Assembly (NCBI GenBank): GCA_964499705.1
Contig: CAZCME010000001.1
Location: 385,243-449,242, forward strand
DNA from: an uncultured bacterium
GTDB taxonomy: Bacteria; UBA8481
Reading direction: 5' to 3'
Length of the DNA: 64,000 nt
The notes beneath the pieces are model-generated. The model did not search any database. It had not been told where the DNA came from and was given only the letters and a program-made list of their open reading frames with translations. The first letter of the stretch is position 1. Each line of letters starts with the position of its first letter. Positions 63 through 45,823 of the stretch are shown piece by piece. The position numbers were made by a program, and so were the translations under genes.

Positions 63-2594
63 GTGAGCGCAAACTTCGGGGTGGGACTCCTCCTTCTCCT
101 CATCGTGGGTGCTCTCGCGCCCGCCGCCGCGGTTTCGGGCGGCTCTCCGGCCACGAACGTCCGCGTGCAGAACATCCTCAAGGCGTTCGTCGGCACGTCG
201 GGGCAGGAGGCGATTGGTCTTGGCTCGTGGATCTCGGGTAAAACTTACGCCGATGTCCTTGCGGGCGGAGCATCCGATCACGATATCCGCCTCATCTCGA
301 ACGCGCTGACGCCCGCCGATGCTCAGCGCGAATGGATTCGCGCCCGCGCCACGCTTTCGGACATGGTGAAGAGAGAATTCGGCAAGGACGCTGCCAAGGT
401 CCTGAAGAGCATCAACCTCTATCCGCCTTCACAGCTCATGCGCGGCGTGGAGGATGCATCGGACGCGCTGGGGCGCTTCAGGAAACTCGGCAATGTTCCG
501 AATCTCGGATTCACCGGCGCCGTTGCGGCGGCGCCCGCCCAGTTCGCCGAAGGGCTCTACGGCTCCGGGGCGAAGGCGTGGACGCAGGCATACGAGCAGC
601 AGGCCGGCCGGATCTTCTATGCGCGCGACGGCAAGGTCTTCACGGGCTTTACGGATCTCACGCACATGTCGGAGGGCATCGCGCGATACGACGTGGCGGG
701 CATGTGCAACACATCGACGCAGTGGGCCGAGCATATCGTCGAGGAACTTCACGAGGGTCGCGGAGATAAAGTGGCGAAGTATCTCGAACGGCTCGACCGG
801 GATCTCGCCAAGGCCCGGAGCCTCGCGAGGGTCGAGCTCGATCCCGCCTGGCGGCAGCAGGTGAAGAAGCTCGCGGAGACATTGAAGAGGAATCCGGGCA
901 AGGCCGGCGAGCTCCAGGGAGAGATCAATGCGGTTCTGGCGAGAAGCCGGGGGGAGGCTTCGCTCCTGACTCGCATGACGCGTGCGCCGGCGGCGGAGCG
1001 GAAAATTCTGCAGAACGCGCTGAAAGAATTGCGGGGAGGCGGACGGTTCTCGCAGATTTTGACGCAGGCCGGGGAGGTCGTGACCTTCGAGCGGGCGCTC
1101 ACTGCGATCTCTGTCATTCTCCAAGTGCGGCAGACGGCGAAATTCGCCGGAGAAGAAGAGTATCATCAGGCCGTCTCGTCGGCACTGGCAGGCGTTGCCG
1201 GTATCGCTTCCTTCCCCGTCGGCTTTGTCGGAGACATGACGAACTGGGTCATGGAATCGGCCAAGGCGAACGGTTATGCCTTCGCGGCCTCCACGCAGGA
1301 AGCGTGGGATCTCATGGCCGGCATTCACACCGCGGTCGGACGGACCGACGTCGAGGATCGCGGGTACACGCTCGATGAACTTGTCGCGAGGATCGACGAC
1401 GAGAAGAAGCTGGAGGCCGTCGTTTACACCAAGGCCAGGAACGCCGCGAGCCGAGGATTCGGAGGAGCCGAGACGGGAAAGACCGACGAGAAGGTCGGGG
1501 ATGAAATCTTCGCCCGCTGCTGGCCGATCATTCGTGATGCCTGGCGCGAGCGCCGCGAGGAGCTCACGCTCGAATACACGGCGATCATGGACGAACTCGA
1601 GCACGCGCCCGTCCTGCTGAAATACGCACCTGTTCCCCTAAGCGTGAAACCCAAGGAGAAGGTGACCGTGACCGTGGCCGCGGAGATGGCGGATCCGAAG
1701 TTTGCCGAGAAGCTGGCGAGAGCGAAACAGATCCTGACAATCCTCTACAGGGAAGGAGTCTTCGCGGATGTGGAGTGGAAGTGGAAGGGGGGGCGCGCCG
1801 CATCCGACAAGACGAAGCGCATCTACGAGTTCGACACGGCCGGATCGCACGCCGTCACGCTCGCGGTGAAGATCAACGCGGGCGCGGCGAACGCGAGGAT
1901 CGGCCAGGTCTTGTCCCGCAAGTTCGAACTGCAATCCGGAATCGATGTGCTCGTCGAAGCGGCGCAGCCGGATTTCGAGTATCCGTTCATGAGCTGTTCC
2001 GTCCGCATCTCCGGGGAGGGCGTCATCAATAAGCGCGGCCTGGACGACAAAATCGATGCCCCGGCAAGGATCGAATTCACGATGGGCGGCTCGGACTTGA
2101 AATATGAGTGGAAGGATAACACCTTCGTCACGGAGTATTTCGAAGTTTACAGGGAAGGATGTCCGGCCCGGGTTCGTCTCGAGGGAAACTTCAATGAGAA
2201 ACGAACCGTCATTGAGAACCTGACGATCACGTGGGAGGGAGTGCGGGATGAAAAGAGCGTGGAGGTGGACATCAGGGAGATCGAAAAGTCGAGTTTTACC
2301 GCGGTGGGCATTCCCTTGAAGGAGACCTTCGACGGAGAAAGGCTTCTCTACTCCGTATCCTTTCGCAAGCTCGAGGATCGGCCGCCCGGATTTCAGTTGC
2401 TGAAGGCCGATTATCTGTATGACTCCCGCAGGGCGGTCCGTCTCACGTTCGACGCCAATGGGAACCGGATGGAGGATGTCATAACAGAGCGCAAGGATCG
2501 GTTCCGCTTCGACCGGGCAGGAGTCAGCATCAGCATCGACTTCTTTCGTGAGCCCATGAGTGATCCGCCGCCTCCGATGAGCGAGCCGAGATAA
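63..2594 (+). CDS. Secreted hypothetical protein, 843 aa (N-terminal nucleotidyltransferase-like motif, helical middle, PKD/Ig-like segment, beta-rich C-terminus)
   Basis: Long ORF with GTG start; hydrophobic signal peptide (LLLLLIVGALAPAAA); motif GLGSW...SDHDIRL; PKD-like segment WKWKGG..RIYEFDTAGSHAVTLAV. Confidence 0.8.
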   Translation: MSANFGVGLLLLLIVGALAPAAAVSGGSPATNVRVQNILKAFVGTSGQEAIGLGSWISGKTYADVLAGGASDHDIRLISNALTPADAQREWIRARATLSDMVKREFGKDAAKVLKSINLYPPSQLMRGVEDASDALGRFRKLGNVPNLGFTGAVAAAPAQFAEGLYGSGAKAWTQAYEQQAGRIFYARDGKVFTGFTDLTHMSEGIARYDVAGMCNTSTQWAEHIVEELHEGRGDKVAKYLERLDRDLAKARSLARVELDPAWRQQVKKLAETLKRNPGKAGELQGEINAVLARSRGEASLLTRMTRAPAAERKILQNALKELRGGGRFSQILTQAGEVVTFERALTAISVILQVRQTAKFAGEEEYHQAVSSALAGVAGIASFPVGFVGDMTNWVMESAKANGYAFAASTQEAWDLMAGIHTAVGRTDVEDRGYTLDELVARIDDEKKLEAVVYTKARNAASRGFGGAETGKTDEKVGDEIFARCWPIIRDAWRERREELTLEYTAIMDELEHAPVLLKYAPVPLSVKPKEKVTVTVAAEMADPKFAEKLARAKQILTILYREGVFADVEWKWKGGRAASDKTKRIYEFDTAGSHAVTLAVKINAGAANARIGQVLSRKFELQSGIDVLVEAAQPDFEYPFMSCSVRISGEGVINKRGLDDKIDAPARIEFTMGGSDLKYEWKDNTFVTEYFEVYREGCPARVRLEGNFNEKRTVIENLTITWEGVRDEKSVEVDIREIEKSSFTAVGIPLKETFDGERLLYSVSFRKLEDRPPGFQLLKADYLYDSRRAVRLTFDANGNRMEDVITERKDRFRFDRAGVSISIDFFREPMSDPPPPMSEPR

Positions 2595-2727
2595 GAGGAC
2601 AGGCCCGCCGGAGCCTGGTGATCTTGCTATTTATTTTCATGGTCGTGACATGGATCATGTCCCCGGGCATCCTTAATGTGGTTCAATGTTTTTCGGAATG
2701 GGGTGGCCCGGAAAATCATCGTCCGTC

Positions 2728-5310
2728 ATGCGATTATCGCTGCCCTTCCTCCTGTTCCTGATTCAGCTCGTCGCCGGGGTGATTCCTGCGGCCGCCGCGT
2801 CTCCTCCCGAAATCCGAATCGTTCGCATCGTGGGCTCCGCTCAGGTGTTGCGCGCGGGAGAATGGAGCAAGCTCGCCGCGCAGGACACGGTCTCCGCCAA
2901 CGAACGCATCCGAACTCCCGGAGGCGGCGAAGTCTTTCTCGACCTCGGAGGTGTTGCGGCGGTCCGGATCGGGCCTGACGCGGATCTGAGGGTTACTTCT
3001 CTTGCCGTAACAGACGCCGGCCGGGCGCGACCGACCGTGAACTCGCGGCTCGACCTGGGCAAAGGGCGTGCGTGGATCAACGTCAAGGAGCTTTCCCGGA
3101 ATTCCCGCTTCGAAGTCCGGACGCCCGTCATCGTGGCCGGTGTCCGGGGGACGTCCTTCGCCGTTGGCGCGGATGGTCCGTTCGCGGGCGTCGGCGTCGC
3201 GGCGGGTTCCGTGGATATGGGGCCCGCGCCCGATGCATCCGACTTTCCCGATGCGGCGGCACTGCCTTCACGTTTCACGCCGCTTCTCCTCGGCGTGCGC
3301 GAGCAGGCGCTCATCGGCACCGGCGATCCCGTGCGCGAGGCGATTCCGGATGAGGAATGGAATCTCCTGAAGCAGGCGCTACAGGAACTGGTGAACACGG
3401 TGGAGATGTCACGGATGAAGCGGTTGTTGGACCAGATACCGCGGAAGGAGGACGCGTCGCTTCTCCGGTTGACGAGTGCCTTCCGTGCGCTCTTCATCCT
3501 GAAGCAGGTGATCGATCGGGCGAATGCGCGGCTGGCCGAGGTGGAGTCCGAATTCGGCGAGAACAGATCGTACTGGCAGGAGGCGGCGAGCCTGGACCTC
3601 CTTCGCGAGCAGACCGTCGGCGCCGTGAGCGAAGCTCGACTGCGGTATGAAACGGCCTATGAGAAACTGGCGGGATCGACCATCCGGCAGATCGAGAAGA
3701 TCGTGGAGCGGTATGACGCGTTCGCGGCCAGGGCGCGGTTCAGCGAAATCGCCGGGGACACGGTATCCGGCCGCATACGCGCGCCGGAGGAAGTCATCCC
3801 GGTCACGCCGGATCTTTCGACACCCGTCGATCCTTTCGCAGCCTCGGAAATTGCGGAGTTCGTGAAGCGGACGCTGGAGCAATTCTTCGTCGCGCTCGAA
3901 ACCGAGAAGATCGGCGACGTCGAAGCACGCGTCGCGGAATCCTTCTTCAATAACGACCGCAACCAGTTCCGATACGGCCGGAACGATTTCCTCATTTCCG
4001 TCCAGAAGGATTTCGATCACCTCGACAACGTCGCCTACCGGTTGCGCGTGAAATCGATCGAGTTCTCGGGGAATCATGCGATCGTACGCCTGCTGTGGGA
4101 CAGGCGCGCGACGATCGCGACGACGCGGAGCGAATGGCTCGTGAAGGATCAGAGCAGCATCCTGACGTTCGAGCGTTCCGACGGCGATCGACGTTTTCTC
4201 CTGTCGCGCATCGACGGCGATCCGATCACGGGGCTTTCATCCAGTTATTCAGGAGTGACGCTCGTGAAGGACGGGACGCTCGACAACGTCCGGCTCGATA
4301 CGGCCATCGCCATCGACGACGACCAGCGGAAGGACACGGCTGATGCGGATGATTTTCCCGATGTGCCTCCGACGGAGATCGGTTTGACGCCGCCGGCGAC
4401 GGGCGCGGTCACTTACACGTTGAACGCCGATACCGTGATCGGAGCGGGGCAGACGTGGACGCTGAACAGCGGAGACCAGGTGCGCATCGGCGCGGGCGTG
4501 CGGATCACGGTCGCCAACGGAGGCGTCCTGAATGCGCACGGAGCCACCTTCACGAACCAGGGCGGCGGAAACTGGAACGGACTTTTCTTCTCCAATACGG
4601 GCGGCGCGAATTCGCTTCTGAATTGCACGATCCAGAATGCGGACACGGGGATCCATCTTTCGAGCGTCACCGCCATCTCGATTTCGAGTTGCCAGGTGAC
4701 CGTGACGGGAGATGCGATCGTGAGCGAGAACAGCACGTCGACGATCCAGAGCAATACGATCCGCGGGACGCAGAGAGGCGTCCGGCTCCGTGGCACCGGC
4801 ACGGTGACGATGTCCTCCAACACCGTGCAGAACTCCACCGGTGTCGCGGCGCTCTCGATCGAGATGGCCGCGCCGTTCACCGGGACGCTGACGAGCACGA
4901 GCGACTTCTTCACCGTGAGCCGCATGGGAGCGCTCTTTGTCGAGGGCGGGCCGGGCACGTACCAGTTCACATCGACGTCCTTCACGCAGAATACGCTCGA
5001 CGGCGTCAACGTCCAGATGGCCATGGGGACCAGTTACACTTTCACCGGTTGCCAGATCAACCAGAACACGAGGCACGGGATCTGGAACGTGGGCGGGGCG
5101 ACGATGACGGTCTCGAGTTCCAATATCATGCAGAATACAGATACGGGCATCCGCGGCGGCGGCGTCGCCACGATGAACGACTGCTATCTCTCCGGAAATA
5201 ACGGCGCGGCTGGCGTGGATCTTTCGACCGCGATCCCGAACTCCGGCTCGGCTCCGCCCCAGTACGCGGAGATGAACACCGTCACGAACCCGAGCGCAAC
5301 GCCGAAATGA
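2728..5310 (+). CDS. Secreted FecR-domain protein with NTF2-like domain and C-terminal right-handed beta-helix
   Basis: Start moved to ATG 2728, which opens a signal peptide (MRLSLPFLLFLIQLVAGVIPAAAA); FecR signature FEVRTPVIVAGVRGTSFAV; repeated S/T/N-rich strands (TIQSNTI, TMSSNTV, FTQNT, INQNT, IMQNT) typical of beta-helices. Confidence 0.8.
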   Translation: MRLSLPFLLFLIQLVAGVIPAAAASPPEIRIVRIVGSAQVLRAGEWSKLAAQDTVSANERIRTPGGGEVFLDLGGVAAVRIGPDADLRVTSLAVTDAGRARPTVNSRLDLGKGRAWINVKELSRNSRFEVRTPVIVAGVRGTSFAVGADGPFAGVGVAAGSVDMGPAPDASDFPDAAALPSRFTPLLLGVREQALIGTGDPVREAIPDEEWNLLKQALQELVNTVEMSRMKRLLDQIPRKEDASLLRLTSAFRALFILKQVIDRANARLAEVESEFGENRSYWQEAASLDLLREQTVGAVSEARLRYETAYEKLAGSTIRQIEKIVERYDAFAARARFSEIAGDTVSGRIRAPEEVIPVTPDLSTPVDPFAASEIAEFVKRTLEQFFVALETEKIGDVEARVAESFFNNDRNQFRYGRNDFLISVQKDFDHLDNVAYRLRVKSIEFSGNHAIVRLLWDRRATIATTRSEWLVKDQSSILTFERSDGDRRFLLSRIDGDPITGLSSSYSGVTLVKDGTLDNVRLDTAIAIDDDQRKDTADADDFPDVPPTEIGLTPPATGAVTYTLNADTVIGAGQTWTLNSGDQVRIGAGVRITVANGGVLNAHGATFTNQGGGNWNGLFFSNTGGANSLLNCTIQNADTGIHLSSVTAISISSCQVTVTGDAIVSENSTSTIQSNTIRGTQRGVRLRGTGTVTMSSNTVQNSTGVAALSIEMAAPFTGTLTSTSDFFTVSRMGALFVEGGPGTYQFTSTSFTQNTLDGVNVQMAMGTSYTFTGCQINQNTRHGIWNVGGATMTVSSSNIMQNTDTGIRGGGVATMNDCYLSGNNGAAGVDLSTAIPNSGSAPPQYAEMNTVTNPSATPK

Positions 5311-7151
5311 AGCGATCTCTTCTCTTCACGGCCGTCGTTGCCCTGCTGCTGCTCGCCGGTCCGCCGTCGCGCGCTCTAGACGTGGAATACTCCGATGGGA
5401 CCCGGAACAGCCCCACTTCATATTCCGGAAACGACGGTGTCCAGACCAACGCGCGGGAAAATGGAAATAATGTCGAAGCTTCCCTGGCCTATCGGGCACC
5501 CGCCTGGTCGCGCCCGGTTGTCGGCGTGCAGGATGCCTTCAAACAATTTCTGAAGTTCGACCGGCTGAACTTCGTCGTCAATTCGCAGTTGTACGACCAG
5601 AACGTGAAGGGAAACGTGAGCCGCTCCTTCAAGGACGAGGGCACTCATCTGACGCAGCGCCTGAATCTCAATCTGGAGAAGAACTACGGCGTCTCGGGCG
5701 GACGCTTCGCCTTCTATGGAGATGTCCGCGCCACAACCGATCAGCAGATCCAGCCTGACAAGGTCTTCGAGACGCTCGGAGCCTACGGCGAATTCGCGAA
5801 TGCGGGAAAGTACAGCCTGAGGCTGGGAAACGTCTCGGCGAACTTCTCATCGTACAGCTTCGGCCAGAGCGCGGATGTCGGCGCGCATCTCAAGCTGGAG
5901 GATCTGAAATTCTCGCGCCTCAACCTGGGCGGCGTCGTGAAGCGATTCGAATTGATCGGCGCCCAGCTTCGGCGGGCGATACCCGGCACGCAGTTCCGCA
6001 GGACCACTTACGGAGCGCATGTCGAACCGAAGATTCCCATCGCGCTCGTCAAACAGGTCGGCGTGAACGTCGTCCAGACGAAAGACGATCTGCGGAGCCT
6101 TCATACCGGCGAGCGGGGAACGCTGCGCGCGCTCACGAATACGCTCTATTCGGGAACGGCGCAACTGGGTTGGAGCGGGTGGATGCTCGATCTCGAAGCC
6201 GCCAGCAGCCGGCACGATGAAGATCAATTGAATTCCGCCCGCCCGCAGACCGGCAACGCGTATCGCGCGCTTCTTTCCGGAATGCTCGTCCAGAGATGGG
6301 GGCCGTTCCAGGGATTCCGGTTCTCCGGAGCGTATGAAAATGTCGAACCGGAGTTCAATTCGGTGACAGGCGCCGGCAATCCCGACAACCGTCTGTTGCG
6401 GGCTTCGCTGGATGTTTCCGTGCCGCGGGCCAATCTCACCCTGAGGCAGGAAGCGTCGCACAGCCGGAATAACCTGCAGGGACAACTCACATCGACGAAT
6501 TACCTGACGACGTACACGCACCGCATGTCCTGGCAGCCGCTCCGAAATTTCGCGAAGATCGAATTCCTCAGGAACGTCAACGTCGCCGTCTCCTTCGTGG
6601 AGACGCTCCGCCGCGCGACTTCGGGAACCCTGCACGGCATCAACGAGCGCCAGGACTTTACGCTCTCCACGCGCCACGGGCGGCACAATATGACCGCGTT
6701 TTACCGATACGGGATCGCGGGCAACAAGGCCGGAGGCACGGGCAACCGGCGGGATGAGGCGGCCGGAGTCTCATACGGGCTGCGTGAACTCGACCTGCAC
6801 GTGGTGAAATCGAGCCTCAACCTCTCGGTCCAGAAGAACTTCAGCGTCCAGAAGGACGGCAGCCTTGCGCGCACCGCTCAGCGGTCGATCGCCATCTCCT
6901 CGCAGAATTATCTCGCTCGCTGGCCCCATCTGCATCTCGACGGCGAATACAGCCGCAACCTGACGGAGAATTCCAATCCGGGCCAGAATATCGCGCGCGG
7001 CCGGTATTCCGTGGCCCTGGCTTCGGACCAGTTCATCGCGAAGGATGGTAAGCTCTCGCTTCTCTTCACCAACGAGCAGACATCGGAGGACCAGGTCGCG
7101 AACAGTTTCGAGGAGATCACATGGAAAGCCGAGCTCGAGTTCAGGTTTTGA
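5307..7151 (+). CDS. Predicted outer-membrane beta-barrel protein
   Basis: ATGA overlap with upstream gene; signal peptide; alternating amphipathic strands; C-terminal beta-signal WKAELEFRF ending in Phe. Confidence 0.75.
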   Translation: MKRSLLFTAVVALLLLAGPPSRALDVEYSDGTRNSPTSYSGNDGVQTNARENGNNVEASLAYRAPAWSRPVVGVQDAFKQFLKFDRLNFVVNSQLYDQNVKGNVSRSFKDEGTHLTQRLNLNLEKNYGVSGGRFAFYGDVRATTDQQIQPDKVFETLGAYGEFANAGKYSLRLGNVSANFSSYSFGQSADVGAHLKLEDLKFSRLNLGGVVKRFELIGAQLRRAIPGTQFRRTTYGAHVEPKIPIALVKQVGVNVVQTKDDLRSLHTGERGTLRALTNTLYSGTAQLGWSGWMLDLEAASSRHDEDQLNSARPQTGNAYRALLSGMLVQRWGPFQGFRFSGAYENVEPEFNSVTGAGNPDNRLLRASLDVSVPRANLTLRQEASHSRNNLQGQLTSTNYLTTYTHRMSWQPLRNFAKIEFLRNVNVAVSFVETLRRATSGTLHGINERQDFTLSTRHGRHNMTAFYRYGIAGNKAGGTGNRRDEAAGVSYGLRELDLHVVKSSLNLSVQKNFSVQKDGSLARTAQRSIAISSQNYLARWPHLHLDGEYSRNLTENSNPGQNIARGRYSVALASDQFIAKDGKLSLLFTNEQTSEDQVANSFEEITWKAELEFRF

Positions 7152-7603
7152 ATCAGGCTGGCCTGCTGAAACAGGCGCTCCTCCTGGCGGTCCTCACGTT
7201 CCTCACCGTGCAGACAGCCGGTTGCGTGCCCTCGTCGGAAAATACGCTCGATCCCGGCCTGGCCCAGCGAACGCTCGACGGATTCTTCCGGAATCTCCAG
7301 GACCGGAACATGCTGGCACTGCGCGATGCGGTGGATTCACAATTCGGTGGCGATGGCGAGCGACTCCTGGCTCAACTCACCGATGCTCTAGACGCCTACC
7401 AGGACATCAGGATCGAGGCGCACGTCCGGCGGGATATCATGGATGACGACGTCCTGGAAACGTCCTTCCGCTGGAATCGCCGATGGCGGTCGCAGGAGAC
7501 TGGCGCCGAGACGCTGGCAAGCGGCACTTCGGTGCTGCGTTTTCGCAGGACCGCATCCGGCTATAAACTGACAGGAGCGCCGGGGCGACAACCGTGGCAG
7601 TAA
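7148..7603 (+). CDS. Putative lipoprotein with NTF2/SnoaL-like fold
   Basis: Probable TTG start overlapping the upstream TGA; hydrophobic stretch then lipobox-like TAG-C; helix-then-strands pattern similar to domains in the 2728 and 7594 genes. Confidence 0.7.
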   Translation: MNQAGLLKQALLLAVLTFLTVQTAGCVPSSENTLDPGLAQRTLDGFFRNLQDRNMLALRDAVDSQFGGDGERLLAQLTDALDAYQDIRIEAHVRRDIMDDDVLETSFRWNRRWRSQETGAETLASGTSVLRFRRTASGYKLTGAPGRQPWQ

Positions 7604-10600
7604 GGTATCTTTCTCTCGCCTTTCTTCTCGCGCTGACGGCAGGCGGGCCGTTTCTTCCGGCGGAGGCGGCGGAATCGGAGGAGCCAGGGGCGCTCGACGT
7701 CTTCTTCCTACCGGCGTTTCCTCCGTTCTACGATGCGATGCTCGGCAAGATCGACGACCTGCACCAGATCTGCCCCGGCACGCCCGCTTCGGATCTGAAG
7801 CTCTACAATAATCTGCTGAAGTTTCCCGGCCACCTCGTCAATCTTCTCTCCTTCGCCAACGCGATCGACGCCGGCGACAATCTCGATGCGGCGATCTCCG
7901 GCGGCTTGAACGGCGCCGGCCTTCTGCTCGATGTCATGGGCGCGTCGGGCATGGAGAACCTGACGGTCTCGTTCGGCGCATCCAGCGCGGCCATCAACCT
8001 CACGGTCATCGGAGCGCTCGTCACATCGCTGCAGATCACGTATCAGAGCTACAAGCTCGCGGTGCAGAACGAAACCGGGCGCAAGATCGAATCGCTCTAC
8101 GGTTCCATTGAACGCGATCCGCATCTCAAGACGCCCGGCCGGAAGCTCGGCGAGGGCGAGCCCATCCGGAAAGACGCGAAGGCGCGCGAATATATCTGGA
8201 CGCGGATTCTCATCGACTCGACGTGGCGGGAGCTTTTCCAGACATATGTCGTGAGCGAGCTGGGCCAGGATTGGCCGCAAGCATCGACATGGGAAAGCAT
8301 GAAAGGCATTTCCGCGGAGGCGAAGATCATCGAGGAGGAACGCCGCCTGAAGGGTCACATCCTCGCGCTTCTGGACCAGATCAGCGGATACGCGAAGGCG
8401 CGCGAGGCCGCGGTCGTGGACGCGAAGAAGATGCGCGAACTAGGCGCCTCCGGAAATGGAAGTTTCACGCCCGCGCAGCTCCAGGCCGCCCTGGCGCGCG
8501 CGGGAGAGGCGCTGAAGGAACTTCCGCGCGCGGAGGAATATGCGAATCACGGGCTCGACGAGAAGGTGAAGGAGTTCAAGGCGGAGATCGAGAAGAAGGA
8601 TGCGACGGCGAGACGGATCCTCATGTTTCGAACCGGCGTCATTCCGGGCGAGATCAAGAATCTTCGCGGCTGGGCGCGCATTATCCAGGGGCTTCCCACC
8701 CGGGGGAAGTTCGGCGCTCAGCGCGAAGCGATCCTGAAGAAACTGGAAGGCGGCTATAGGAAGTTGCTCGCTCTCATCAATTCGATTCCCCGCGACAAGA
8801 TCGAGGAACTGGCGAAAGTGGAGGAGAAAGCGATCGAGCAGGAAGCGCTGGCGGAGCATGACCCGTGGAATCCGCAAGCGGCAGTTTCGGAAGCGGCGAC
8901 CGACAATGCCGTGATGAAGCACTTCCAGTTCAAGCGTCGGAAGCTCGAACGGAAATACGAGGATTACGCCGGAGAGATGCGGTCGATCGTCGAGAACGGG
9001 GAAGTCGACGAGCGGATGAAATCGGAACGGATCATCCAGGACGCGCGGGATGCGGCGGCGAAACTCCAGGGAGAATATGAATCGGACAGGCTCGACCATG
9101 AGAAATCGGATTACCTGAAGAAATATGATGAAGTGGCGGAAAAGCAGGGGGCGGAAATGGATGCTCTCAACAAGGATCTGGAGCGCACCAACGCCGAAAT
9201 TGCCGCGGCGGAGGGGCGCCTCTCCACTTCGCTATACCAGAGGCGATACGCGCTCCTTCAACAGATCGAGGTGTTGAAGAAGGAACAGCGAATCCTGGGG
9301 GCGAATCTGAAGGCCGTCATGCGTGAGGTGGAGATGTACGCGGCTCTTGATGTGGGGGAAGCGAACGAGATCGTGCAGCGCCTCGTCAACTACGCGGAGA
9401 TGTATCGCGCCCGCTTCGCGAACGTCACGGCGCTCCTGCAGTCGACCGCTGCCGATGCCTTGGCCAGGGTCGGCGCATTCCAGCCGCCTTTTTCGCTCCT
9501 GTCGAAGGATGACGTCCGCGCCTTGCGAGAACTCCTCGCGAAAGGAGGAACGACGTACGCGGGCACGACCGGCAACGATTATCTCAAGTCGAAATTGGCG
9601 CTCGATCCCGCTTCCACACCCCTGACACAGTTCCGCGAGCGCCTCAAGGAGCTGCGCGACGCCTCGAAAGCCTACGCGGAAAAAGTCGCGGCGCTCCGGA
9701 TTCCGCTCGAACATTCCATCGTTTCTCCCGAAGGCGGATTCATCGGATACATCTCGCAGCTCGAGAAGAATGTCGTGCCGGCGCTTCAATACGTCGAGAA
9801 GGGGGAATTCGCGCGGCAGCGGAAATTGATCGAGGACGCGCTCGCGGAAGCGGTCCGCTTCATCGAGGATCGCCACGACGAGATTCCCGAATCCTTCGAA
9901 GAGTCGTATGAGGCAATGATGAAAAACCTGGAGGAGTATCAGGCCGGCGCGAAAATCTATACCGCCGCCTTTCTCAATCCCGGCGTTTCGTCCGAAGAAG
10001 TGCAAACCTTTGTGAAGACGGCGGAGGAAAATAACCGGCGCGTGTCGGACGACCTGGACTACATCAATATGCTGTACGAACGATTCTGGAAGGCAGAGCT
10101 GGAAGCGGGCCGCCTGGTCGCGGGCATGATCGTCGCTTCATCCAGCCATGGCGGAGACGGCTCTCTTCCTCTCTTGGGATCTGAAGAGCTGAAGGACATC
10201 ATGAGCGAATATCGGTTGGAAGAGATCGACGTGCAGGCGAACCTGGGCCTTGGAAAACTTCTGGAGGCTCCCTGGGCTGTCACGCGAACGCGGGAACGGA
10301 TGGTCCTCATCCGTCAGAAGGAGCTCCAGGATTTTCATGCGCGACTCACGGCCATACCCCCCGCATCGCTCAACTCGATGATCGCGGAAGCGAGAAAAGC
10401 ATCGTCGGGCGTCGATCTCCTCATGGACAACCGGCTCCAGCGCGGGCAGGAATGCGCGCTCCAGCTCAAGGCGATCCCGGAATACGCGGAGCTGGGAAAG
10501 CGGATCGACGCGACGCTCGCGCTGAAGCGCAAGCAGGCGGAGGACGAGCGCGAGAGGGAAAACAAGGAAAGAACCACGGAGCTTCTGAAGATCTTCGAAC

Positions 10601-11874
10601 TGGAACGCGAACTGGAGATGACGCGGCTCGTGGACGCGGAAGCGCGCGGCGCGCGGCTGGAACAGTTTCGGCGGGAGATGCGGGAAACGACGAAAGGATT
10701 CACCCGGACGACGACGGAGCTCGCGGCTCTCGAAGCGAAGATCGACCGTTACATCCAGGAAGCGAAGGACCAGGCCGCGGAGAGGAAGACGCTCGATGCG
10801 GTCATCCGCGGAAAGCTCGATCGGCTCTCCGACGCATACAGGAAACGCCAGGCCACCGGCGTCCTCGAACTCTTCGCCCGCGATTTCCGGGGAGGATGGG
10901 AGAATCTCCGCGTCCAGCTCGACAAGGATTTCGGGCTCTTTTCCTCTCTTATCCTGACGATCCAGCCGATGTTCGTGAACGCGACGGGCGATCGAGCGGA
11001 GGTCGAGTTCGAGTGGAGGAACGAATCGCTGTACAGAAAGGGTGGCGCCGCCGCGAGCCGGACGGGGCGATCGAAGCTGATTTTCGAGAGAGGCATGAGC
11101 GATCAATGGCTGATCATGGATGCGGAGGGTGATCCGTTCCTCGGCATCGGAACCGAGCGGGCTTCCGCGCCGCAGGTCGTTTCAAACTCGCCCGCACAGG
11201 GGCAGTCGAACGTGCCTCCATCGGAGCAGGTGACGGTGGACTTTTCCGAGACGATGGATGCGGCGTCGATCTCCGCGGCGCTCACGATCGAACCGCGCAC
11301 CGATGTGAACCTCGATTACTTCGGATTCAACCTGACGATCCGGCCTCGGACATCCTGGCCGTCGAACGCGTCGATCCGCGTGCGTCTCTCCAGGGAAGCG
11401 ATGAGCGCGTTCGGCATCCCGCTCGACCGGGAACTGGACTTCACGTTCCGCACCGGCGATATTCTGACCGCGCCGCCCCCGCCGCCGCCGACCGTCGCGA
11501 CCGTCACGGGTAACGCATCGCTCTGGCCGTTCGACGGATTTCTCTTTTCGACGCAGAGTACAGTCAACGGCGTCGATCCGATGGGATCCTCCGATTGCGA
11601 TGTCTTCTCCTGGGGAGGCGACGCTCTGCATGGAATGGGCGGAGCAGGGCTCCTGGACATGGGTGCGGGCCGTCTCTCCAGTTTCGCGACGGCTCCGGAA
11701 TCCGGTTACCGGAAGGATCTCCCCGACAGGATGGAGATCGGACATGTGTACATGGTCCAGACCGCCGATATGCGCTTTGCCAAGCTCCTCGTATCGAACT
11801 GCGGACCGCACAGGCAGATCGTTTTCCGTTTCGTTTATCAACCCGACGGCACCCGGAATCTTCCGGGCGAGTAA
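7594..11874 (+). CDS. Giant secreted protein, 1426 aa: helical/coiled-coil body, NTF2-like domain, Big_5-type Ig domain, Pro linker, small C-terminal beta domain
   Basis: Signal peptide; long E/K/R/A-rich helical region; Ig-like motif PQVVSNSPAQGQSNVP..VTVDFSETMD...FTFRTG; APPPPPPT linker. Confidence 0.8.
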   Translation: MAVRYLSLAFLLALTAGGPFLPAEAAESEEPGALDVFFLPAFPPFYDAMLGKIDDLHQICPGTPASDLKLYNNLLKFPGHLVNLLSFANAIDAGDNLDAAISGGLNGAGLLLDVMGASGMENLTVSFGASSAAINLTVIGALVTSLQITYQSYKLAVQNETGRKIESLYGSIERDPHLKTPGRKLGEGEPIRKDAKAREYIWTRILIDSTWRELFQTYVVSELGQDWPQASTWESMKGISAEAKIIEEERRLKGHILALLDQISGYAKAREAAVVDAKKMRELGASGNGSFTPAQLQAALARAGEALKELPRAEEYANHGLDEKVKEFKAEIEKKDATARRILMFRTGVIPGEIKNLRGWARIIQGLPTRGKFGAQREAILKKLEGGYRKLLALINSIPRDKIEELAKVEEKAIEQEALAEHDPWNPQAAVSEAATDNAVMKHFQFKRRKLERKYEDYAGEMRSIVENGEVDERMKSERIIQDARDAAAKLQGEYESDRLDHEKSDYLKKYDEVAEKQGAEMDALNKDLERTNAEIAAAEGRLSTSLYQRRYALLQQIEVLKKEQRILGANLKAVMREVEMYAALDVGEANEIVQRLVNYAEMYRARFANVTALLQSTAADALARVGAFQPPFSLLSKDDVRALRELLAKGGTTYAGTTGNDYLKSKLALDPASTPLTQFRERLKELRDASKAYAEKVAALRIPLEHSIVSPEGGFIGYISQLEKNVVPALQYVEKGEFARQRKLIEDALAEAVRFIEDRHDEIPESFEESYEAMMKNLEEYQAGAKIYTAAFLNPGVSSEEVQTFVKTAEENNRRVSDDLDYINMLYERFWKAELEAGRLVAGMIVASSSHGGDGSLPLLGSEELKDIMSEYRLEEIDVQANLGLGKLLEAPWAVTRTRERMVLIRQKELQDFHARLTAIPPASLNSMIAEARKASSGVDLLMDNRLQRGQECALQLKAIPEYAELGKRIDATLALKRKQAEDERERENKERTTELLKIFELERELEMTRLVDAEARGARLEQFRREMRETTKGFTRTTTELAALEAKIDRYIQEAKDQAAERKTLDAVIRGKLDRLSDAYRKRQATGVLELFARDFRGGWENLRVQLDKDFGLFSSLILTIQPMFVNATGDRAEVEFEWRNESLYRKGGAAASRTGRSKLIFERGMSDQWLIMDAEGDPFLGIGTERASAPQVVSNSPAQGQSNVPPSEQVTVDFSETMDAASISAALTIEPRTDVNLDYFGFNLTIRPRTSWPSNASIRVRLSREAMSAFGIPLDRELDFTFRTGDILTAPPPPPPTVATVTGNASLWPFDGFLFSTQSTVNGVDPMGSSDCDVFSWGGDALHGMGGAGLLDMGAGRLSSFATAPESGYRKDLPDRMEIGHVYMVQTADMRFAKLLVSNCGPHRQIVFRFVYQPDGTRNLPGE

Positions 11875-11877
11875 AAC

Positions 11878-14800
11878 GTGAAATCATCGCCGGCACTTTT
11901 TCTCTGTCTCGCGTTGCTGGCGCCCGCCGCGCACGCCGCGAACGATTCGGACCCGTATTCGTTCATGAGGGGAACTCCGGAGGTGATCGAATCGCTCAGC
12001 TATGACGCGCGGATCCAGTGGGGCGGGAGGCTTCTGACCGTGAGCGAGCTCCGCGCGCTTCCCATCGGCGAGGCGGCCACGACGCAACTCTGGAACAAGC
12101 TCGATCGCGAAAATCGGCTCTTGCTCGTGAACTGCTATATCGGTTATCTCAGTGTGCCGACCAACTTCTTCCAGCATTTCGGTTCGCCCGCTCGCGAGGA
12201 ATTCTCCCGCTTCTGGAAGGAGAATACCGAGGCGCAGAAGCTCATCCGCAGGGGCGCCGAGAAACGCATCGCGCTGCGGTTGTCGCCGAGCGTCACGCAG
12301 GCGCTGGAGGAGCCGCTGCCGGATGTCGGCGCGGCCAGGGAAGGGGTCACGGAAGCGTGCAGGGAGTTGAACGAGCTGCTCACGAAGTCCAGGTCGCTCC
12401 AGAAAGGCATGCAGAATATCGTGGCGCACCTGAAGGAATTGGAGCGGCAGAAGATCGGGCAGGCGTTCACGGCAGCCGAGGGATTTCTCGCGGAGCAATT
12501 CGTCGGAGTCTTCATGGGACCGCTGATCGCGATGGGCGCGGTCGGAGAATTGAGCGGCGTGATCGCGGACGGCATCAATGTCAGCAAGGATTATCTGAAC
12601 GGCCTGGCGAACTCGCCCGACGCGAAGGATTCGAATGCGCGCGAGGATTTTTTCATCAGGGCCGCGAACGGTGTGCAGGAGAAACTGGTCGGCACGCTGG
12701 AGCAGGCCGCGAACGAGTTTCTCGCCAATGTGGATCGGATCGATCTGCTCCGCAGGCAATGCGCGGGGGATGACGAGGATGATGAGGGCCGGGGAAAGCC
12801 GATCGACGTCACGGAGATCGCCTGCATCACGGAGCTGAGAAGCGCACGCGGAGGCGTGGCGGAGTTGCAGAAGATCGTGGAGAAATACTATCCGGAAGGG
12901 CGCTTTCCGCCGGCGAGCATCCTCAAGCTGGTGGAGCAACTGCTGCGCGGGTCCAGGCCCGAGCTTCCCCGGCCCGAAACCGTCGCCCAACCTCCGGGTG
13001 GGAGAGGTGGTGTAGAGACGTCGTCGGAGCCGCCAAGCGGCGAGCCACCCGGAGGCGATGAGCCGACACCCATGGACGAGCCGATCGAGGAGCCGCAGAC
13101 CTGTCCTCCGGGTTTCCAGGCAATCTGGGCCGAACGACAAATCGAGACGGGGCCGTGGGAACGGTATCTCGCCGGTTGCGAGAAGATCGAAGATCCGTCG
13201 CTGGAGGACACCGTCGAGGCGGGATGGGAAGAGGAATGGGAGAATCTCTACGCGGAAGCCGGCGGCGAAGTGGACGGCGAGCCGGAACCGGAGGAGCCGG
13301 AACAATCGTGGGACGAGTGGAAGCGCGGAGGATATCAGCTTCCGAATCAGAAGTTTCCTCATCTCGACTTCGGGGCTCCGGAGTGGCGGCAGTGGAGCTG
13401 GGCGGAAGCGATCGCGATGAGCCGCACGCTCCGGGAGAATCTTCTCAATATCTACTCCACCATGACAATGTTGCGGGAGCAGGTGGAGCGGAGGGAGAAC
13501 GAGATATTCGGTCCGAGCGGGATCATGACGAAGCTTTCCCGCGACCGGCTTGCGGATCCCGCAGTCTTCTCGAAAGCGCAGTCGGACGCGGCGAATGCGG
13601 TCGGCGAGATCCACTTCTCCGTGTCGGGCGTTCTCCGCTTTCTCGACGACGGCAGTGGAGTCCTTGTCGTGCGGTCCGTCGCGGACCTGGAGAATGCGTA
13701 TGCGACGCTCCAGAAGATCCGGTCGGATATCGCGACGAGAGTGCACGCGATGCACCTCGCGGAGGCGGGGCGGCTTAAGAATGAATACGAGCAGGCCCTG
13801 AAGAAATACAGCGAGGAATACGCGAAGAACGAGAAGTGGATCGTGGTCATCAACGGGAACCTGGAGTCGATACTTCCCGCTTCGCAGGGACAGATCGCCG
13901 CGGGCATGAAGCATCCCGCGATCGAGAGGATCGAGTCGAAGGCGTTCGAGACGAGAGAAGCTTCCCTGGACGAACAGATCGACTTCCTCGCCGAGCTCGA
14001 CAGGAGGATCGCGGAATTTCCGGCGATGCTGCAGGCCATCCGCGCGGACCAGGCGAAGGTCATGGCTCTCATGGAGCCAGTCCGATCGAGAATCGACCAG
14101 ATCCGATCGATGACGAGCGCGCTGGAACGGAGCGAATGGCCGGCGCTTCAGGCGATCTACCGCGAGCTGGGGCACGCGGGATCCGAGGACGACGATTTTC
14201 TAGACGCGAGGATCGCGAAGCTGAAGCCGCTCCTGAGGATCGGAAACGCGAAGAACGGATATCGCGTGACGATGGAGTCGCTCATGAAGATGCGGGATAT
14301 TCTCGACGCGAGGCGCGATCTGGCCGCGACGACCGCCGAGCCGCTCCGCGTCGCGATCGTGAAGGCGTGCGCGAGAGATCTCGAGAAGCTCGCGGAGAAG
14401 ATATCGCAGGCGGCGACAACGGAGGAGCTCGACAGGCTTTCGAACCAGGCGAACGCGATCCTGGCGAGACCCTGGGCCAATTCGAATCGCGAGGCCATCG
14501 AGAAACCACTCAACAGGATCCAGGACGAAAAGCTCAAACGCCTCTCGACCCTGGCGCATGTGACGGTTCCTGTTATGAACGAACGAACAGGATCGTTGCC
14601 GGCCGGAACCAGGCAGGTGCTTCTGGAACTGGCTCTCCTGGAGGCTGAAGTCCGGCAGTTGATTCCCGGCTATGACGAACCGACGCGCGCGAAGAGCGCC
14701 GTCGAAAGGGCCGCCGCTCTTCTCCGGAAGCATGATGCCCTGACCGATCCGGCCGCACTCGCCCTCTATTCCGCCATTCGCTCGCGTGCCGCGTGGCTGA

Positions 14801-15435
14801 CGGGCGAAGCGTTGCCGATTCTCGACAAGGACAATACGACCTCGCCCGGTGGTGAATCCAGGCCCGCCAGCGGCGCGCTGTCGATAAAGCGCGAGGAGCG
14901 GATTATCGCGGTCCCGGCAACACCGGAAGCCCAGGCGCCGCCGCGGACAACCGCTCCGTCTTTCCCGGTAGACGTCGAGCAGCTCTGGAACCGGGTGACG
15001 AATGAGGAGCAGCCGAGGATGACGGTGCTGATCGTCTCCCTGGAGCAAGCCTCCTACCGAGCTCTCTACGATCAATTCGTCCGCACCCTGAAGCAGATGA
15101 ACGCCATCGAGAAGACGACCGGAAGCGTGGAGGAAATCACCGCGCCGGGGAATCTCCGGATGCCCGAGACCGAGGAAGAACTGAATCGCGTCGTCGCCCT
15201 GATCGACGAGTTCCTGGCGAAGCGGCAACGGATCATCGCCGACGTCGACGAACTGACCGAAGTGCTCGCCGGCCTCGACGAATTCTTCAGGAAGGTGGAC
15301 GCTCCCTCCGTGAAGCGCGCCGCGGACTATTACCGCGACCGGATCGAAAGCCTCCGTGCACTGGCGGCGCGGGCGAGAAAGGTCCTGGAACCCCTCAGGA
15401 AGGACCTGGAGATCCGCGGAAAAGATGGCGCCTGA
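11878..15435 (+). CDS. Giant secreted helical/coiled-coil protein, 1185 aa, with acidic Pro-rich linker
   Basis: GTG start 3 nt after upstream stop; signal peptide ending AAHA; almost entirely helical composition; P/E/G-rich region at about 12960-13320. Confidence 0.8.
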   Translation: MKSSPALFLCLALLAPAAHAANDSDPYSFMRGTPEVIESLSYDARIQWGGRLLTVSELRALPIGEAATTQLWNKLDRENRLLLVNCYIGYLSVPTNFFQHFGSPAREEFSRFWKENTEAQKLIRRGAEKRIALRLSPSVTQALEEPLPDVGAAREGVTEACRELNELLTKSRSLQKGMQNIVAHLKELERQKIGQAFTAAEGFLAEQFVGVFMGPLIAMGAVGELSGVIADGINVSKDYLNGLANSPDAKDSNAREDFFIRAANGVQEKLVGTLEQAANEFLANVDRIDLLRRQCAGDDEDDEGRGKPIDVTEIACITELRSARGGVAELQKIVEKYYPEGRFPPASILKLVEQLLRGSRPELPRPETVAQPPGGRGGVETSSEPPSGEPPGGDEPTPMDEPIEEPQTCPPGFQAIWAERQIETGPWERYLAGCEKIEDPSLEDTVEAGWEEEWENLYAEAGGEVDGEPEPEEPEQSWDEWKRGGYQLPNQKFPHLDFGAPEWRQWSWAEAIAMSRTLRENLLNIYSTMTMLREQVERRENEIFGPSGIMTKLSRDRLADPAVFSKAQSDAANAVGEIHFSVSGVLRFLDDGSGVLVVRSVADLENAYATLQKIRSDIATRVHAMHLAEAGRLKNEYEQALKKYSEEYAKNEKWIVVINGNLESILPASQGQIAAGMKHPAIERIESKAFETREASLDEQIDFLAELDRRIAEFPAMLQAIRADQAKVMALMEPVRSRIDQIRSMTSALERSEWPALQAIYRELGHAGSEDDDFLDARIAKLKPLLRIGNAKNGYRVTMESLMKMRDILDARRDLAATTAEPLRVAIVKACARDLEKLAEKISQAATTEELDRLSNQANAILARPWANSNREAIEKPLNRIQDEKLKRLSTLAHVTVPVMNERTGSLPAGTRQVLLELALLEAEVRQLIPGYDEPTRAKSAVERAAALLRKHDALTDPAALALYSAIRSRAAWLTGEALPILDKDNTTSPGGESRPASGALSIKREERIIAVPATPEAQAPPRTTAPSFPVDVEQLWNRVTNEEQPRMTVLIVSLEQASYRALYDQFVRTLKQMNAIEKTTGSVEEITAPGNLRMPETEEELNRVVALIDEFLAKRQRIIADVDELTEVLAGLDEFFRKVDAPSVKRAADYYRDRIESLRALAARARKVLEPLRKDLEIRGKDGA

Positions 15436-15510
15436 CGCGCCGATGGATTCGGGATCGATACGGCGGTACAGTTCCACGGCTTGCATTCCGCGTTTGCAGA
15501 AAGGTCCATC

Positions 15511-16956
15511 ATGAGCGATCCCCACCGTTCCCATCCCAATGCGTCCTATTCCTTCACCTTTCGAGTCGAACTGCCGTCGAAACCCGGAACCTTCGCGCGC
15601 CTCGCGGCCATCATCGGCAAAGCGGGCGGCGATCTCGGCGCCATTGACCTTGTCGCCACTTCGCCGCTTGGAACGGTGCGCGATGTCACGGTCGCCGCCG
15701 GCAATGAAACGCATGCCAGGCGGATTCTTGCCGCCATCAGGGCGCAGAAGAGATTCCGCATCGTCAATGTTTCGGACCGGACTTTTCTGCTGCACCTGGG
15801 GGGGAAGCTGTCCGTGGAGAATCGCAAGCCTCTCGTCACGCGCGACGATCTCTCCATGGCCTACACGCCGGGCGTGGCGCGCATCTGCGCCGCGATCCAC
15901 GAGAATCCGAAGGCGGCCTGGTCGCTGACGATCAAGGGTTCGACCGTCGCGGTGGTCTCCGATGGCACGGCCGTTCTGGGCCTTGGCGATATCGGGCCCG
16001 AGGCCGCGATGCCGGTGATGGAAGGAAAGGCGATGCTCTTCAAGGAATTTGGAGGCGTCAACGCGTTTCCGATCTGCCTGAACACGAGGAGCGTGGACGA
16101 GATCGTGGATATTGTGGCCGCTCTCGCGCCCACTTTCGGCGGTATTAATCTGGAGGACATCAGCGCGCCCCGGTGTTTCGAGATCGAGGAGCGCCTGAAG
16201 AAGCGGCTCGACATTCCGGTCTTCCACGATGACCAGCACGGCACCGCCGTCGTGGTGCTGGCCGCGCTTCACAACGCATGCCGCGTCGTGAAGAAGAACC
16301 TGCGCGAACTGAAGGTTGTGGTGACGGGCGTCGGCGCCGCGGGTGTGGCGTGCTCGAAGATCCTTCGTCACGCCGGAGTCCGCAACATCCTGGGTTTCGA
16401 CCGCGCCGGCGTCCTGTATCGGGGGCGCGTGGAGCACATGAACGACGCGAAGATCGCCTACGCCCGCATGACCAATCCGGCCAATTTCACCGGATCGCTC
16501 CGGGATGCGCTGAAAGGCGCTGATCTTTTACTCGGTCTCTCTGGGCCCGGCACTCTGGAGCCGAAGTGGTTGAGGCACATGGCTCGCCAGGCCATGGTCT
16601 TCGTGATGGCGAATCCGACGCCGGAAATCATGCCCGAGGAGATTCCGGGCAACATTCGCATCGTGGCGACAGGGCGGAGCGACTACCCCAACCAGATCAA
16701 CAACGTGCTCTGCTTCCCCGGAATCTTCAAGGGCGCTCTCTCGGTGCATGCCCGCGAGATCAACGAACGGATGAAACTGGCGGCCGCCCGCGCCATCGCG
16801 GAGATCGTGAGGAGAGACGGCGTTTCGCCGGAATACATCGTACCGAGCGTATTCGACCGGCGCGTGGCCGAGCGGGTGGCGGTGGCCACGGCCCGAGCCG
16901 CCATCGCCACAGGCGCCGCCCGTCGCATACCCAAGGCCGCGAATCCGTTGAGGTGA
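15511..16956 (+). CDS. NAD(P)-dependent malic enzyme with N-terminal ACT domain
   Basis: Motifs DDLSMAYTPGVA, VSDGTAVLGLGDIGP, GGINLEDI, FHDDQHGTA, GVGAAG, TGRSDYPNQINN; ACT-like N-terminus (KPGTFARL..IGKAGGDL); ATG 15511 preceded by GAAAGG. Confidence 0.93.
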   Translation: MSDPHRSHPNASYSFTFRVELPSKPGTFARLAAIIGKAGGDLGAIDLVATSPLGTVRDVTVAAGNETHARRILAAIRAQKRFRIVNVSDRTFLLHLGGKLSVENRKPLVTRDDLSMAYTPGVARICAAIHENPKAAWSLTIKGSTVAVVSDGTAVLGLGDIGPEAAMPVMEGKAMLFKEFGGVNAFPICLNTRSVDEIVDIVAALAPTFGGINLEDISAPRCFEIEERLKKRLDIPVFHDDQHGTAVVVLAALHNACRVVKKNLRELKVVVTGVGAAGVACSKILRHAGVRNILGFDRAGVLYRGRVEHMNDAKIAYARMTNPANFTGSLRDALKGADLLLGLSGPGTLEPKWLRHMARQAMVFVMANPTPEIMPEEIPGNIRIVATGRSDYPNQINNVLCFPGIFKGALSVHAREINERMKLAAARAIAEIVRRDGVSPEYIVPSVFDRRVAERVAVATARAAIATGAARRIPKAANPLR

Positions 16957-17031
16957 ATCCTGATCATCAGGATGGAGCCGGAACAGCTCGAGCGCGGATT
17001 TTACGGTGCGCCGCGATCAACGCCTGTTGAC

Positions 17032-17586: not shown

Positions 17587-17726
17587 GATGATCGCTCCAT
17601 CGAGAAAAATCACACAGCGCGCCGTTAACACCAGAGCACGCTCTCGTGAATTATCGGCCGTCAGGCGGCGCGAGTAAAGCCCGGGAAACGAGTCGCCGAT
17701 ACTGTAAAACAGGTTATGCTTCGCTC

Positions 17727-18386: not shown

Positions 18387-18400
18387 GGAGTTGCCTGGAA

Positions 18401-21438: not shown

Positions 21439-21703
21439 TTCTTCCTCCTCGATGATCCACTCTTGAGAATTCAAGGTGGTGATATTTCTCACAGTTTCAG
21501 AAATATTCGGCGGCTCGTCAATCTGATTAATCGGACGGTATTAGTCCTAGTAACTGCATTGACATGACTTCGTTGTCACTGCCTCGGATCTTGATACGGT
21601 CAAAATGTCACGATATGGTGATCATCAGCCTGAAATAACGAAAGTTATCGTACGGGACCTTCGGCATGGAGGGTGCAACAATTTCAATCTGGAAAGCTGA
21701 AAT

Positions 21704-24146: not shown

Positions 24147-24176
24147 GTAACCAACCAAAGCGGAGGTGCGGCAACA

Positions 24177-39565: not shown

Positions 39566-39584
39566 TGGATGGAGATTAACATAG

Positions 39585-42146: not shown

Positions 42147-45821
<3,675 letters not shown>

Positions 45822-45823
<2 letters not shown>

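Follow-up and report, generated by a model that had tools for sequence, protein, structure and literature searches.

The six genes examined here, g1 to g6, occupy positions 63-15435 of a 64,000-nucleotide stretch of DNA from an uncultured bacterium (lineage UBA8481; contig CAZCME010000001.1, positions 385,243 to 449,242); this whole stretch is referred to as the window throughout. The core of the locus contains a well-supported plug-and-barrel outer-membrane module, in which the lipoprotein g4 is predicted to fill the lumen of a predicted 26-strand beta-barrel, g3. The reading preferred here, to which we would give a little less than an even chance, is that this module docks the large exported proteins encoded beside it; their display at the cell surface would be its function. 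Four of the six genes (g2-g5) are linked by evidence that goes beyond adjacency.

The barrel protein g3

The g3 gene (5307-7151, + strand) encodes a protein of 614 amino acids with a signal peptide at the N-terminus and a phenylalanine at the C-terminus. Its structure was modelled with AlphaFold2 (AF2) from a 75-sequence alignment. The model has a predicted local distance difference test score (pLDDT) of 88.3 and a predicted template modelling score (pTM) of 0.79; it places 26 strands between residues 86 and 613 and leaves residues 18-72 disordered. The outer-membrane barrel recognised in the initial annotation is confirmed by this model. When the model was compared with the PDB by Foldseek, generic large barrels only were retrieved, with template modelling scores (TM) of at most 0.50 and 8-12% identity; they include MtrB (TM 0.50), FimD (0.45), SlpA and PapC. 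No Pfam or NCBIfam match at an expectation value (E) <= 0.1 and no PDB-sequence family match was found for g3. The 26 modelled strands, taken with fold matches confined to generic barrels, argue that g3 is a genuine outer-membrane barrel of a family that has no curated model.

A word-based search with g3 returned four relatives. One of them, P0001, is 76% identical; the three others are 28% identical and 736-781 amino acids long, and one of these three is named as coming from a metagenome-assembled genome (MAG) of Candidatus Lindowbacteria. In an exhaustive profile search 128 representatives were recovered at E <= 1e-3, 63 of them at <= 1e-10 and 8 at <= 1e-30, mostly of 500-700 amino acids; about 100 of the barrels are unfused. 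Of 32 representatives of the family compared with Pfam, 23 matched nothing at E <= 0.01, and the matches above cut-off were one to SlpA_C and one to Porin_4 only. Within the window, where 476 stop-to-stop open reading frames (ORFs) of at least 70 amino acids were searched, the barrel hidden Markov model (HMM) matches g3 alone.

The lipoprotein g4

The g4 gene (7121-7603, + strand; alternative TTG start at 7148) encodes a lipoprotein of 160 amino acids with its lipid-attachment cysteine at position 35 and an NTF2-fold domain at residues 48-159. Its N-terminal hydrophobic stretch, read by eye, terminates in T-A-G-C, and a clear lipobox cysteine is present in 7 of 9 full-length stand-alone relatives. 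The AF2 model of g4 (22 sequences, pLDDT 90.7) contains 3 helices and 4 long strands. Foldseek identified it as NTF2-like, with TM 0.73 to 3rob, followed by ketosteroid-isomerase-like, SnoaL and CaMKII-hub structures. The features of the NTF2-like superfamily fold, a cone-shaped alpha+beta domain with three helices on a curved sheet, are all present in the model. At the sequence level g4 has no Pfam match, and hence no curated NTF2-type family; only 2 of 13 relatives touch such families, through SnoaL_3 (E 0.025) or DUF4440 (E 0.037).

Free-standing proteins of the g4 family, of about 140-166 amino acids, were returned by the exhaustive search. A word-based search of longer proteins with the plug alignment found none, which by the tool's own statement is weak evidence. 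Nearly all g4-type domains (P0044, P0048, P0053, P0002 and others) end in a conserved proline-aromatic C-terminus, from which the end of g4 itself differs, and a strand motif rich in tryptophan and arginine is common to the stand-alone and the fused domains.

The connection between the two proteins is seen in relatives where they form one polypeptide. The C-terminal extension of the long Lindowbacteria barrel relatives aligns with g4. Seven related loci (L001-L007) were compared, and a g4-like domain was located by tblastn and phmmer directly behind the barrel, in the same ORF, in all four that retain the barrel C-terminus (L001, L003, L004, L005). The barrel-plug fusion also occurs in P0002-P0005. 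Sequence and modelling together provide good support for g4 as the partner of the barrel and the predicted lumen plug of g3.

Predicted complex of g3 and g4

The complex was predicted for residues 24-614 of g3 and residues 35-160 of g4, with alignments for both proteins. Scores of 0.77, 0.75 and 0.77 were obtained, against 0.06 for the best control, a positive outcome. Contact agreement between the runs was at least 77%, as was the partner pLDDT (at least 77). The score mark applied is reached by 116 of 157 solved complexes and by 2 of 215 mismatched pairs, a calibration that is only rough here as our own alignments were used.

The lipoprotein makes confident contact with alternating residues in 19 of the 26 barrel strands and with loops that, given a periplasmic N-terminus, would be extracellular. 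On these strands the residues that touch g4 are polar (mean hydropathy -1.11), whereas those on the other face average +0.54. Only a partner within the lumen gives such a pattern of alternating polar contacts over 19 strands, which argues for the placement of g4 inside the barrel. Strands 7-11 and 25-26 have no confident g4 contact in the predicted complex.

A plug-type domain shared with g2 and g5

The products of two neighbouring genes carry a domain of the g4 type. The g2 gene (2686-5310, + strand) encodes an exported multidomain protein of 874 amino acids in which a signal peptide is followed by a FecR domain (residues 74-176), a helical region, the plug-type domain (residues 393-512; 3862-4221, + strand), a conserved linker and a right-handed beta-helix. 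The FecR/beta-helix protein of the initial annotation is upheld for both domains, as Pfam assigns residues 74-176 to FecR (PF04773, E 2.1e-10, 41.3 bits against a cut-off of 24) and residues 614-719 to Beta_helix (E 5.8e-12). A match to NosD, a carbohydrate-binding type of beta-helix, was also obtained (E 1.5e-6). The FecR domain contains a Gly-Thr motif at G155-T156. Residues ~41-180 match the NCBIfam models for Lsa33/LipL45 in their FecR part only (E ~5e-11, ~42 bits against cut-offs of 350-420).

The g5 gene (7594-11874, + strand) encodes an exported protein of 1426 amino acids. Its order is a helix-rich N-terminal part, the plug-type domain (residues 1071-1182; 10804-11139, + strand), a Big_5 immunoglobulin (Ig)-like domain (residues 1191-1287, E 3.8e-11 in Pfam), a proline-rich linker and a C-terminal beta domain (residues ~1353-1423). 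A word-based search with g5 returned P0133 (64% identity) and P0134 (a 100%-identical fragment) only. The exhaustive search added two distant relatives, P0123 and P0101, in which a helical part again precedes the plug-type domain and a C-terminal beta domain homologous to that of g5 follows it (pairwise E 2e-6).

Both plug-type domains are NTF2-like and were detected with the HMM of the g4-family domain, at 33.9 bits and E 6.2e-11 in g2 and at E 4.9e-10 in g5. The same HMM matches all four g2-like proteins of the related loci, and among the 476 ORFs of the window it matches g4, g2 and g5 only. The presence of this domain thus ties g5 to the barrel module. The modules behind the plug-type domain are beta-rich: the beta-helix in g2, and the Ig-like and C-terminal beta domains in g5. 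Beta-rich modules such as beta-helices and Ig-like domains are usually extracellular.

Related loci

In all four related loci that include upstream DNA (L001, L002, L006, L007), three of them paralogous loci of one MAG, the gene immediately before the barrel gene is g2-like. Synteny, put forward earlier as a check on the locus, is in this form observed wherever upstream DNA is at hand. The conserved core of the g2-like proteins runs from a short helical lead-in through the plug-type domain to the linker. The module that follows the linker varies, from the beta-helix of g2 to a glycine-rich domain in Lindowbacteria, and such variation of the C-terminal module fits what would be expected of a displayed part. 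FecR was not found in the Lindowbacteria g2-like proteins by domain scan, so that it falls outside the conserved core.

Some further features of these loci were recorded. The g2-like proteins of L001 (7347-9812), L002 (3-5783), L006 (5439-9746) and L007 (5908-8211) terminate in a conserved, extremely glycine-rich domain of about 300 amino acids, which closes with a common five-residue C-terminal motif. Giant Ig-domain proteins (>1800 amino acids) are encoded immediately upstream of the Lindowbacteria g2-like genes. In L001, from a Lindowbacteria MAG, a secretin of 2201 amino acids is encoded convergently to the barrel gene (12156-18761, - strand), with five Secretin_N domains and C-terminal HHH_3 repeats. 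An overall correlation between the divergence of barrels and of g2-like proteins (r = 0.96) was rejected, since it was driven only by the contrast of the window with Lindowbacteria.

A candidate docking module for large exported proteins

According to the arrangement proposed here, g3 would fold as a 26-strand barrel in the outer membrane and the NTF2-fold domain of g4 would fill its lumen, the plug being supplied in trans in this bacterium and in cis in Lindowbacteria. The plug-type domains of g2 and g5 would act as barrel-docking modules that fix both large proteins. This would bring their C-terminal beta-rich modules to the cell surface, and the long N-terminal parts would lie next to the barrel or underneath it. 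What the cluster builds would in this case be an outer-membrane-anchored surface structure and not a small-solute transporter. In the initial annotation a barrel with adaptors was held to assemble or display large proteins. The part of this claim that stands is that g2, g3 and g4 belong together (natural fusion, gene order, shared domain and complex prediction) and that g5 belongs with them (shared domain); assembly or display is something we infer.

Several observations weigh against this proposal. Support from complex prediction covers g3 and g4 only; for g2 and g5 we infer both docking and surface exposure. Conservation of the barrel is no higher at the predicted interface than elsewhere (0.306 vs 0.321, p = 0.32), and the high score of the complex could be due in part to its likeness to solved plug-in-barrel complexes such as LptDE. 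The Lindowbacteria barrel has its own fused plug yet keeps a g2-like partner, and therefore a g2-type domain cannot simply replace the plug; the two types of domain must coexist. The g2-type domain may form a pair with the plug, the two may occupy different lobes of one lumen, or its role may be another. The N-terminal parts of the g2-like proteins vary, bearing Ig- or MG2-type domains, so that each part may lie on either side of the membrane. Within Lindowbacteria, divergence of the barrel is not tracked by that of the g2-like partner (r = -0.53 over 6 pairs). Finally, no relatives of g1 or g6 were found in the seven related loci.

A more specific form of the docking proposal may be considered, which we judge unlikely. 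The embedded NTF2-type domain would lodge in its dedicated 26-strand barrel, so that one giant polypeptide spans the outer membrane, the long helical N-terminal part on the periplasmic side and an adhesin- or enzyme-like C-terminal module on the other. The lipoprotein, or the fused copy, would serve as resting plug or as pairing partner. This would constitute an undescribed class of display or tethering.

Comparison with known outer-membrane systems

The initial annotation could name no secretion system with this layout, and the same result was obtained when the locus was compared feature by feature with TonB/FecIR, two-partner secretion, LptDE, Mtr and usher systems: none of these systems could be identified in it. 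Families of sigma factors, TonB-dependent receptors, POTRA domains and secretion ATPases, reported as lacking from the outset, were likewise not detected by scans of the six proteins and of 27 and 7 other ORFs of the window.

LptD/LptE offers the nearest working analogy. In those listed titles and abstracts that explain the term, 'plug-and-barrel' denotes LptDE, and the available excerpts of the literature describe LptD/LptE as a 26-strand barrel with a lipoprotein in its lumen; the g3-g4 arrangement is the same by prediction only. Differences from it are several. No LptD, OstA or LptE family match was found in Pfam or NCBIfam, and no LptD chain is present among the 43 Foldseek matches listed for g3. 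Unlike LptD, g3 has no N-terminal beta-jellyroll, its residues 18-72 being the disordered segment, and unlike LptE the plug g4 has an NTF2-like fold. Moreover, the plug domain here is also found as part of the barrel polypeptide and within giant proteins. Text searches of the literature found no paper pairing NTF2 with a barrel lumen and none joining SnoaL, outer membrane, lipoprotein and barrel; none of the 20 papers listed by a looser search uses 'NTF2-like'.

Likeness to LptD/LptE, or to a plugged TonB-type barrel, raises the possibility that g3 is an outer-membrane channel or translocon, gated by g4, that handles a lipid, a glycan or another bulky substrate. The proteins g2, g5, g1 and g6 would then be periplasmic or surface accessories that process or bind the substrate, and g2 could act on glycans as an enzyme through its beta-helix. 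The predicted 26-strand barrel with its lumen plug is compatible with such a role, the strands free of confident g4 contact would leave room for passage, and the NosD match of g2 as well as the weak Porin_4 and SlpA_C matches in distant g3-family members point in the same direction. However, no inner-membrane transporter, ATPase, periplasmic bridge or polysaccharide synthesis gene was found in the cluster or elsewhere in the window, Pfam and NCBIfam gave no LptD, LptE or TonB-family signal, and a plug-type domain within two giant proteins is left unexplained by a channel. We therefore regard a translocon as possible but rather doubtful.

In the Mtr system, the 26-strand barrel MtrB sheathes a membrane-spanning partner protein. 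MtrB (6r2q_B) has the top TM-score among the fold matches of g3, at 0.50 with 9% identity. Unlike in MtrAB(C), the six proteins contain 0 CxxCH haem motifs, and no MtrB/PioB family match was found.

The locus resembles TonB/FecIR systems in that a protein with a FecR domain, g2, is encoded beside a plugged outer-membrane barrel. A FecA/FecR-like signalling device could be envisaged on this basis, in which the barrel detects an external signal and relays it to the FecR domain of g2, and self-cleavage at Gly-Thr sets this domain free. The FecR assignment of g2 is above the Pfam cut-off, and G155-T156 lies inside the domain. In the passages available from PMC13719327, on Leptospira FecR-domain proteins, a Gly-Thr motif conserved in LipL45 and FoxR is described as a putative self-cleavage site tied to cell-surface signalling. 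Even so, signalling of this kind is improbable for g2. The protein begins with a cleavable-looking signal peptide and not with a cytoplasmic anti-sigma domain and membrane span, and the N-terminal anti-sigma part of FecR is missing; no sigma factor was found in the window, the DNA upstream of g1 lying outside it; and the g2-like proteins of Lindowbacteria have no FecR match. The barrel also differs from a TonB receptor, which has 22 strands and an N-terminal plug: with 26 strands, g3 matches none of TonB_dep_Rec, Plug and STN, and its plug comes either in trans or as a C-terminal fusion to the barrel.

The FecR region and Gly-Thr motif of g2 resemble those of the Leptospira proteins LipL45, Lsa33 and Lsa19. 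The Leptospira FecR-domain proteins are, according to the portions of PMC13719327 at hand, at least partly located in the outer membrane; those portions describe no barrel partner for them, and the word 'beta-barrel' is absent from the paper. These are short, single-domain proteins that share only FecR with g2. Lindowbacteria, in which the related loci lie, are called the closest phylum to Spirochaetes in the part available of a preprint (10.1101/2025.07.04.663154).

Export of g2 and g5 through g3 was also considered. On this view the locus would encode a type V-like secretion pair: the g2 beta-helix and the g5 C-terminal modules would travel through g3 as passengers, to be released or retained in the manner of two-partner secretion or autotransporters. 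The beta-helix gene directly precedes the barrel gene with an ATGA overlap, lumen-plugged ushers are among the best fold matches (FimD, TM 0.45), and the C-terminal modules vary. Two-partner secretion (TPS) employs a 16-strand Omp85-type barrel with POTRA domains and a TPS passenger, whereas no match to POTRA, Omp85/ShlB, Bac_surface_Ag or the TPS haemagglutination activity domain (Haemagg_act) was found here, and g3 has 26 strands, not 12-16. The beta-helix is C-terminal to a folded domain and not at a secretion-competent N-terminus. The chaperone-usher barrels FimD and PapC are, like g3, large and hold a folded plug in the lumen, and they gave the best Foldseek E-values (1.6e-8); however, their TM-scores are only 0.33-0.45, no Usher, PapD or fimbrial match was found, and the window has no chaperone or pilin genes. 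The fold matches are generic (TM <= 0.50, 8-12% identity), and a type V-like mechanism appears very unlikely.

Layout of the locus and membership of g1 and g6

All six ORFs are on the + strand, and their GC content at third codon positions (GC3), 0.70-0.80, matches that of the remaining window genes. The junctions were read in the DNA: a gap of 91 nucleotides separates g1 from g2, g2 and g3 overlap by ATGA, g4 and g5 overlap by 10 nucleotides and 3 nucleotides separate g5 from g6. The g3/g4 junction is a TTGA overlap with the TTG start at 7148 and a 31-nucleotide overlap with the ATG start at 7121. The co-orientation and junctions given in the initial annotation are thus all present, the TTGA provided that g4 starts at TTG 7148.

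Export signals were judged by eye from the translations. An N-terminal hydrophobic stretch followed by an alanine-rich cleavage-type site is seen in g2, g3, g5 and g6. The earlier statement that every product has a signal peptide or lipobox accordingly holds for g2-g6 and is less sure for g1, in which the n-region after GTG 63 has no positive charge. The frame of g1 is open up to the first bases of the window, which leaves the start of g1 and the upstream edge of the locus unsettled; the true start, and with it the edge, may lie upstream of the window.

The g1 gene (63-2594, + strand) encodes an exported-looking protein of 843 amino acids, helix-rich in its N-terminal two-thirds and beta-rich in the C-terminal third; g6 (11878-15435, + strand) encodes an exported, helix-rich protein of 1185 amino acids. 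By a crude propensity count 31-46% of sequence windows are helix-like in g1, g5 and g6, against 4% in g3. The description 'very large helical proteins' is in this sense correct for the three, and is to be qualified in that g2 and g5 also have beta-rich C-terminal modules, so that the large proteins are helical only in part. One hydrophobic segment rich in glycine and alanine is present in each of g1 (369-393), g5 (99-150) and g6 (199-235), with hydropathy maxima of 1.67-1.72; these segments could be membrane-inserting hairpins.

Database searches with the locus were largely negative. No Pfam cut-off was reached by g1, g3, g4 or g6; g1 has a sub-threshold PKD match only (E 0.052), and g6 has no Pfam or NCBIfam family at cut-off. 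No usable ESM Atlas match was obtained for g1 and g6. PDB sequence searches with g1, g2, g3, g5, g6 and the barrel and plug alignment profiles gave nothing meaningful, and PHROGs and PADLOC gave 0 families for all six proteins. A phmmer comparison among g1, g5 and g6 detected no paralogy at E <= 1. Homology of g5 and g6 was not accepted, the match (blastp E 0.002 in a 7-protein database) being over 225 residues of coiled-coil-like sequence.

The claim of a six-gene machine does not extend to g1 and g6 on these data: neither has relatives in the related loci, and what connects them is co-orientation and, for g6, the 3-nucleotide gap. Their membership is uncertain, as they are linked by operon layout alone; they are probably co-transcribed accessory exported proteins. 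It might be argued further that the whole neighbourhood is loose, with only g3 and g4 cooperating and the other four genes encoding unrelated envelope proteins that share an operon, as g1, g5 and g6 are near-orphans not found in related loci; but the plug-type domain common to g2, g4 and g5 and to nothing else in 64 kb, the g2-like gene upstream of the barrel in four of four loci and overlaps that couple the genes translationally leave little likelihood for it.

Surrounding genes

A malic enzyme gene is found downstream of g6, and the rest of the window contains housekeeping and respiratory genes. The regulatory scan returned 0 promoter-like sites; terminator-like sites numbered 9, where chance alone would give about 15. 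Scans of the window for Rfam families and tRNAs gave no matches. A full Hsp70/DnaK gene is located at 22180-24102 (+ strand; E 7e-264). The longest ORF at this place is on the - strand (21958-24177), with a Pfam NAD-GH match (E 7e-163) and a lower GC3 of 0.63, and looks like an antisense artefact of dnaK. One DUF4331 is split over the adjacent - strand ORFs 19847-20587 and 20608-21492, which cover profile positions 1-235 and 250-421; the split could be due to a frameshift or a stop codon, or could be a true one.

The run at 25692-39607 (- strand) includes MoxR AAA_3, DUF58, a sub-threshold VWA_2 (24.3 bits against 27), TPR and large unassigned proteins, and presumably resembles operons of the Bat/aerotolerance type. 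At 42143-48696 and 52231-56794 (both + strand) are genes for a NarG, NarH and NarI-type nitrate reductase and for a second molybdopterin/4Fe-4S oxidoreductase with an NrfD-type membrane subunit. A protein of 1522 amino acids with CBM48/AMPK glycogen-binding modules and many TPR repeats is encoded at 59282-63850 (- strand).

Implications for the outer membrane

The known ways to place folded proteins in or across the outer membrane are few, those usually cited being Lpt, Bam/Tam, type V secretion, ushers, Slam, RcsF-porin threading and Mtr. A barrel family without a curated model, together with a modular NTF2-type lumen partner, would be an added design for this membrane. The partner occurs in three forms: as a lipoprotein of its own, as an extension of the barrel and as a domain within giant proteins. 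The pair of g3 and g4 offers a concrete and testable subject for structural work. The occurrence of one domain both in the plug of the barrel and in its giant exported neighbours suggests a new way to anchor or display large surface proteins. The barrel family spans poorly known lineages, Lindowbacteria among them, in which many bacteria expose lipoproteins and adhesins, and may bear on how the cell surface is built there.

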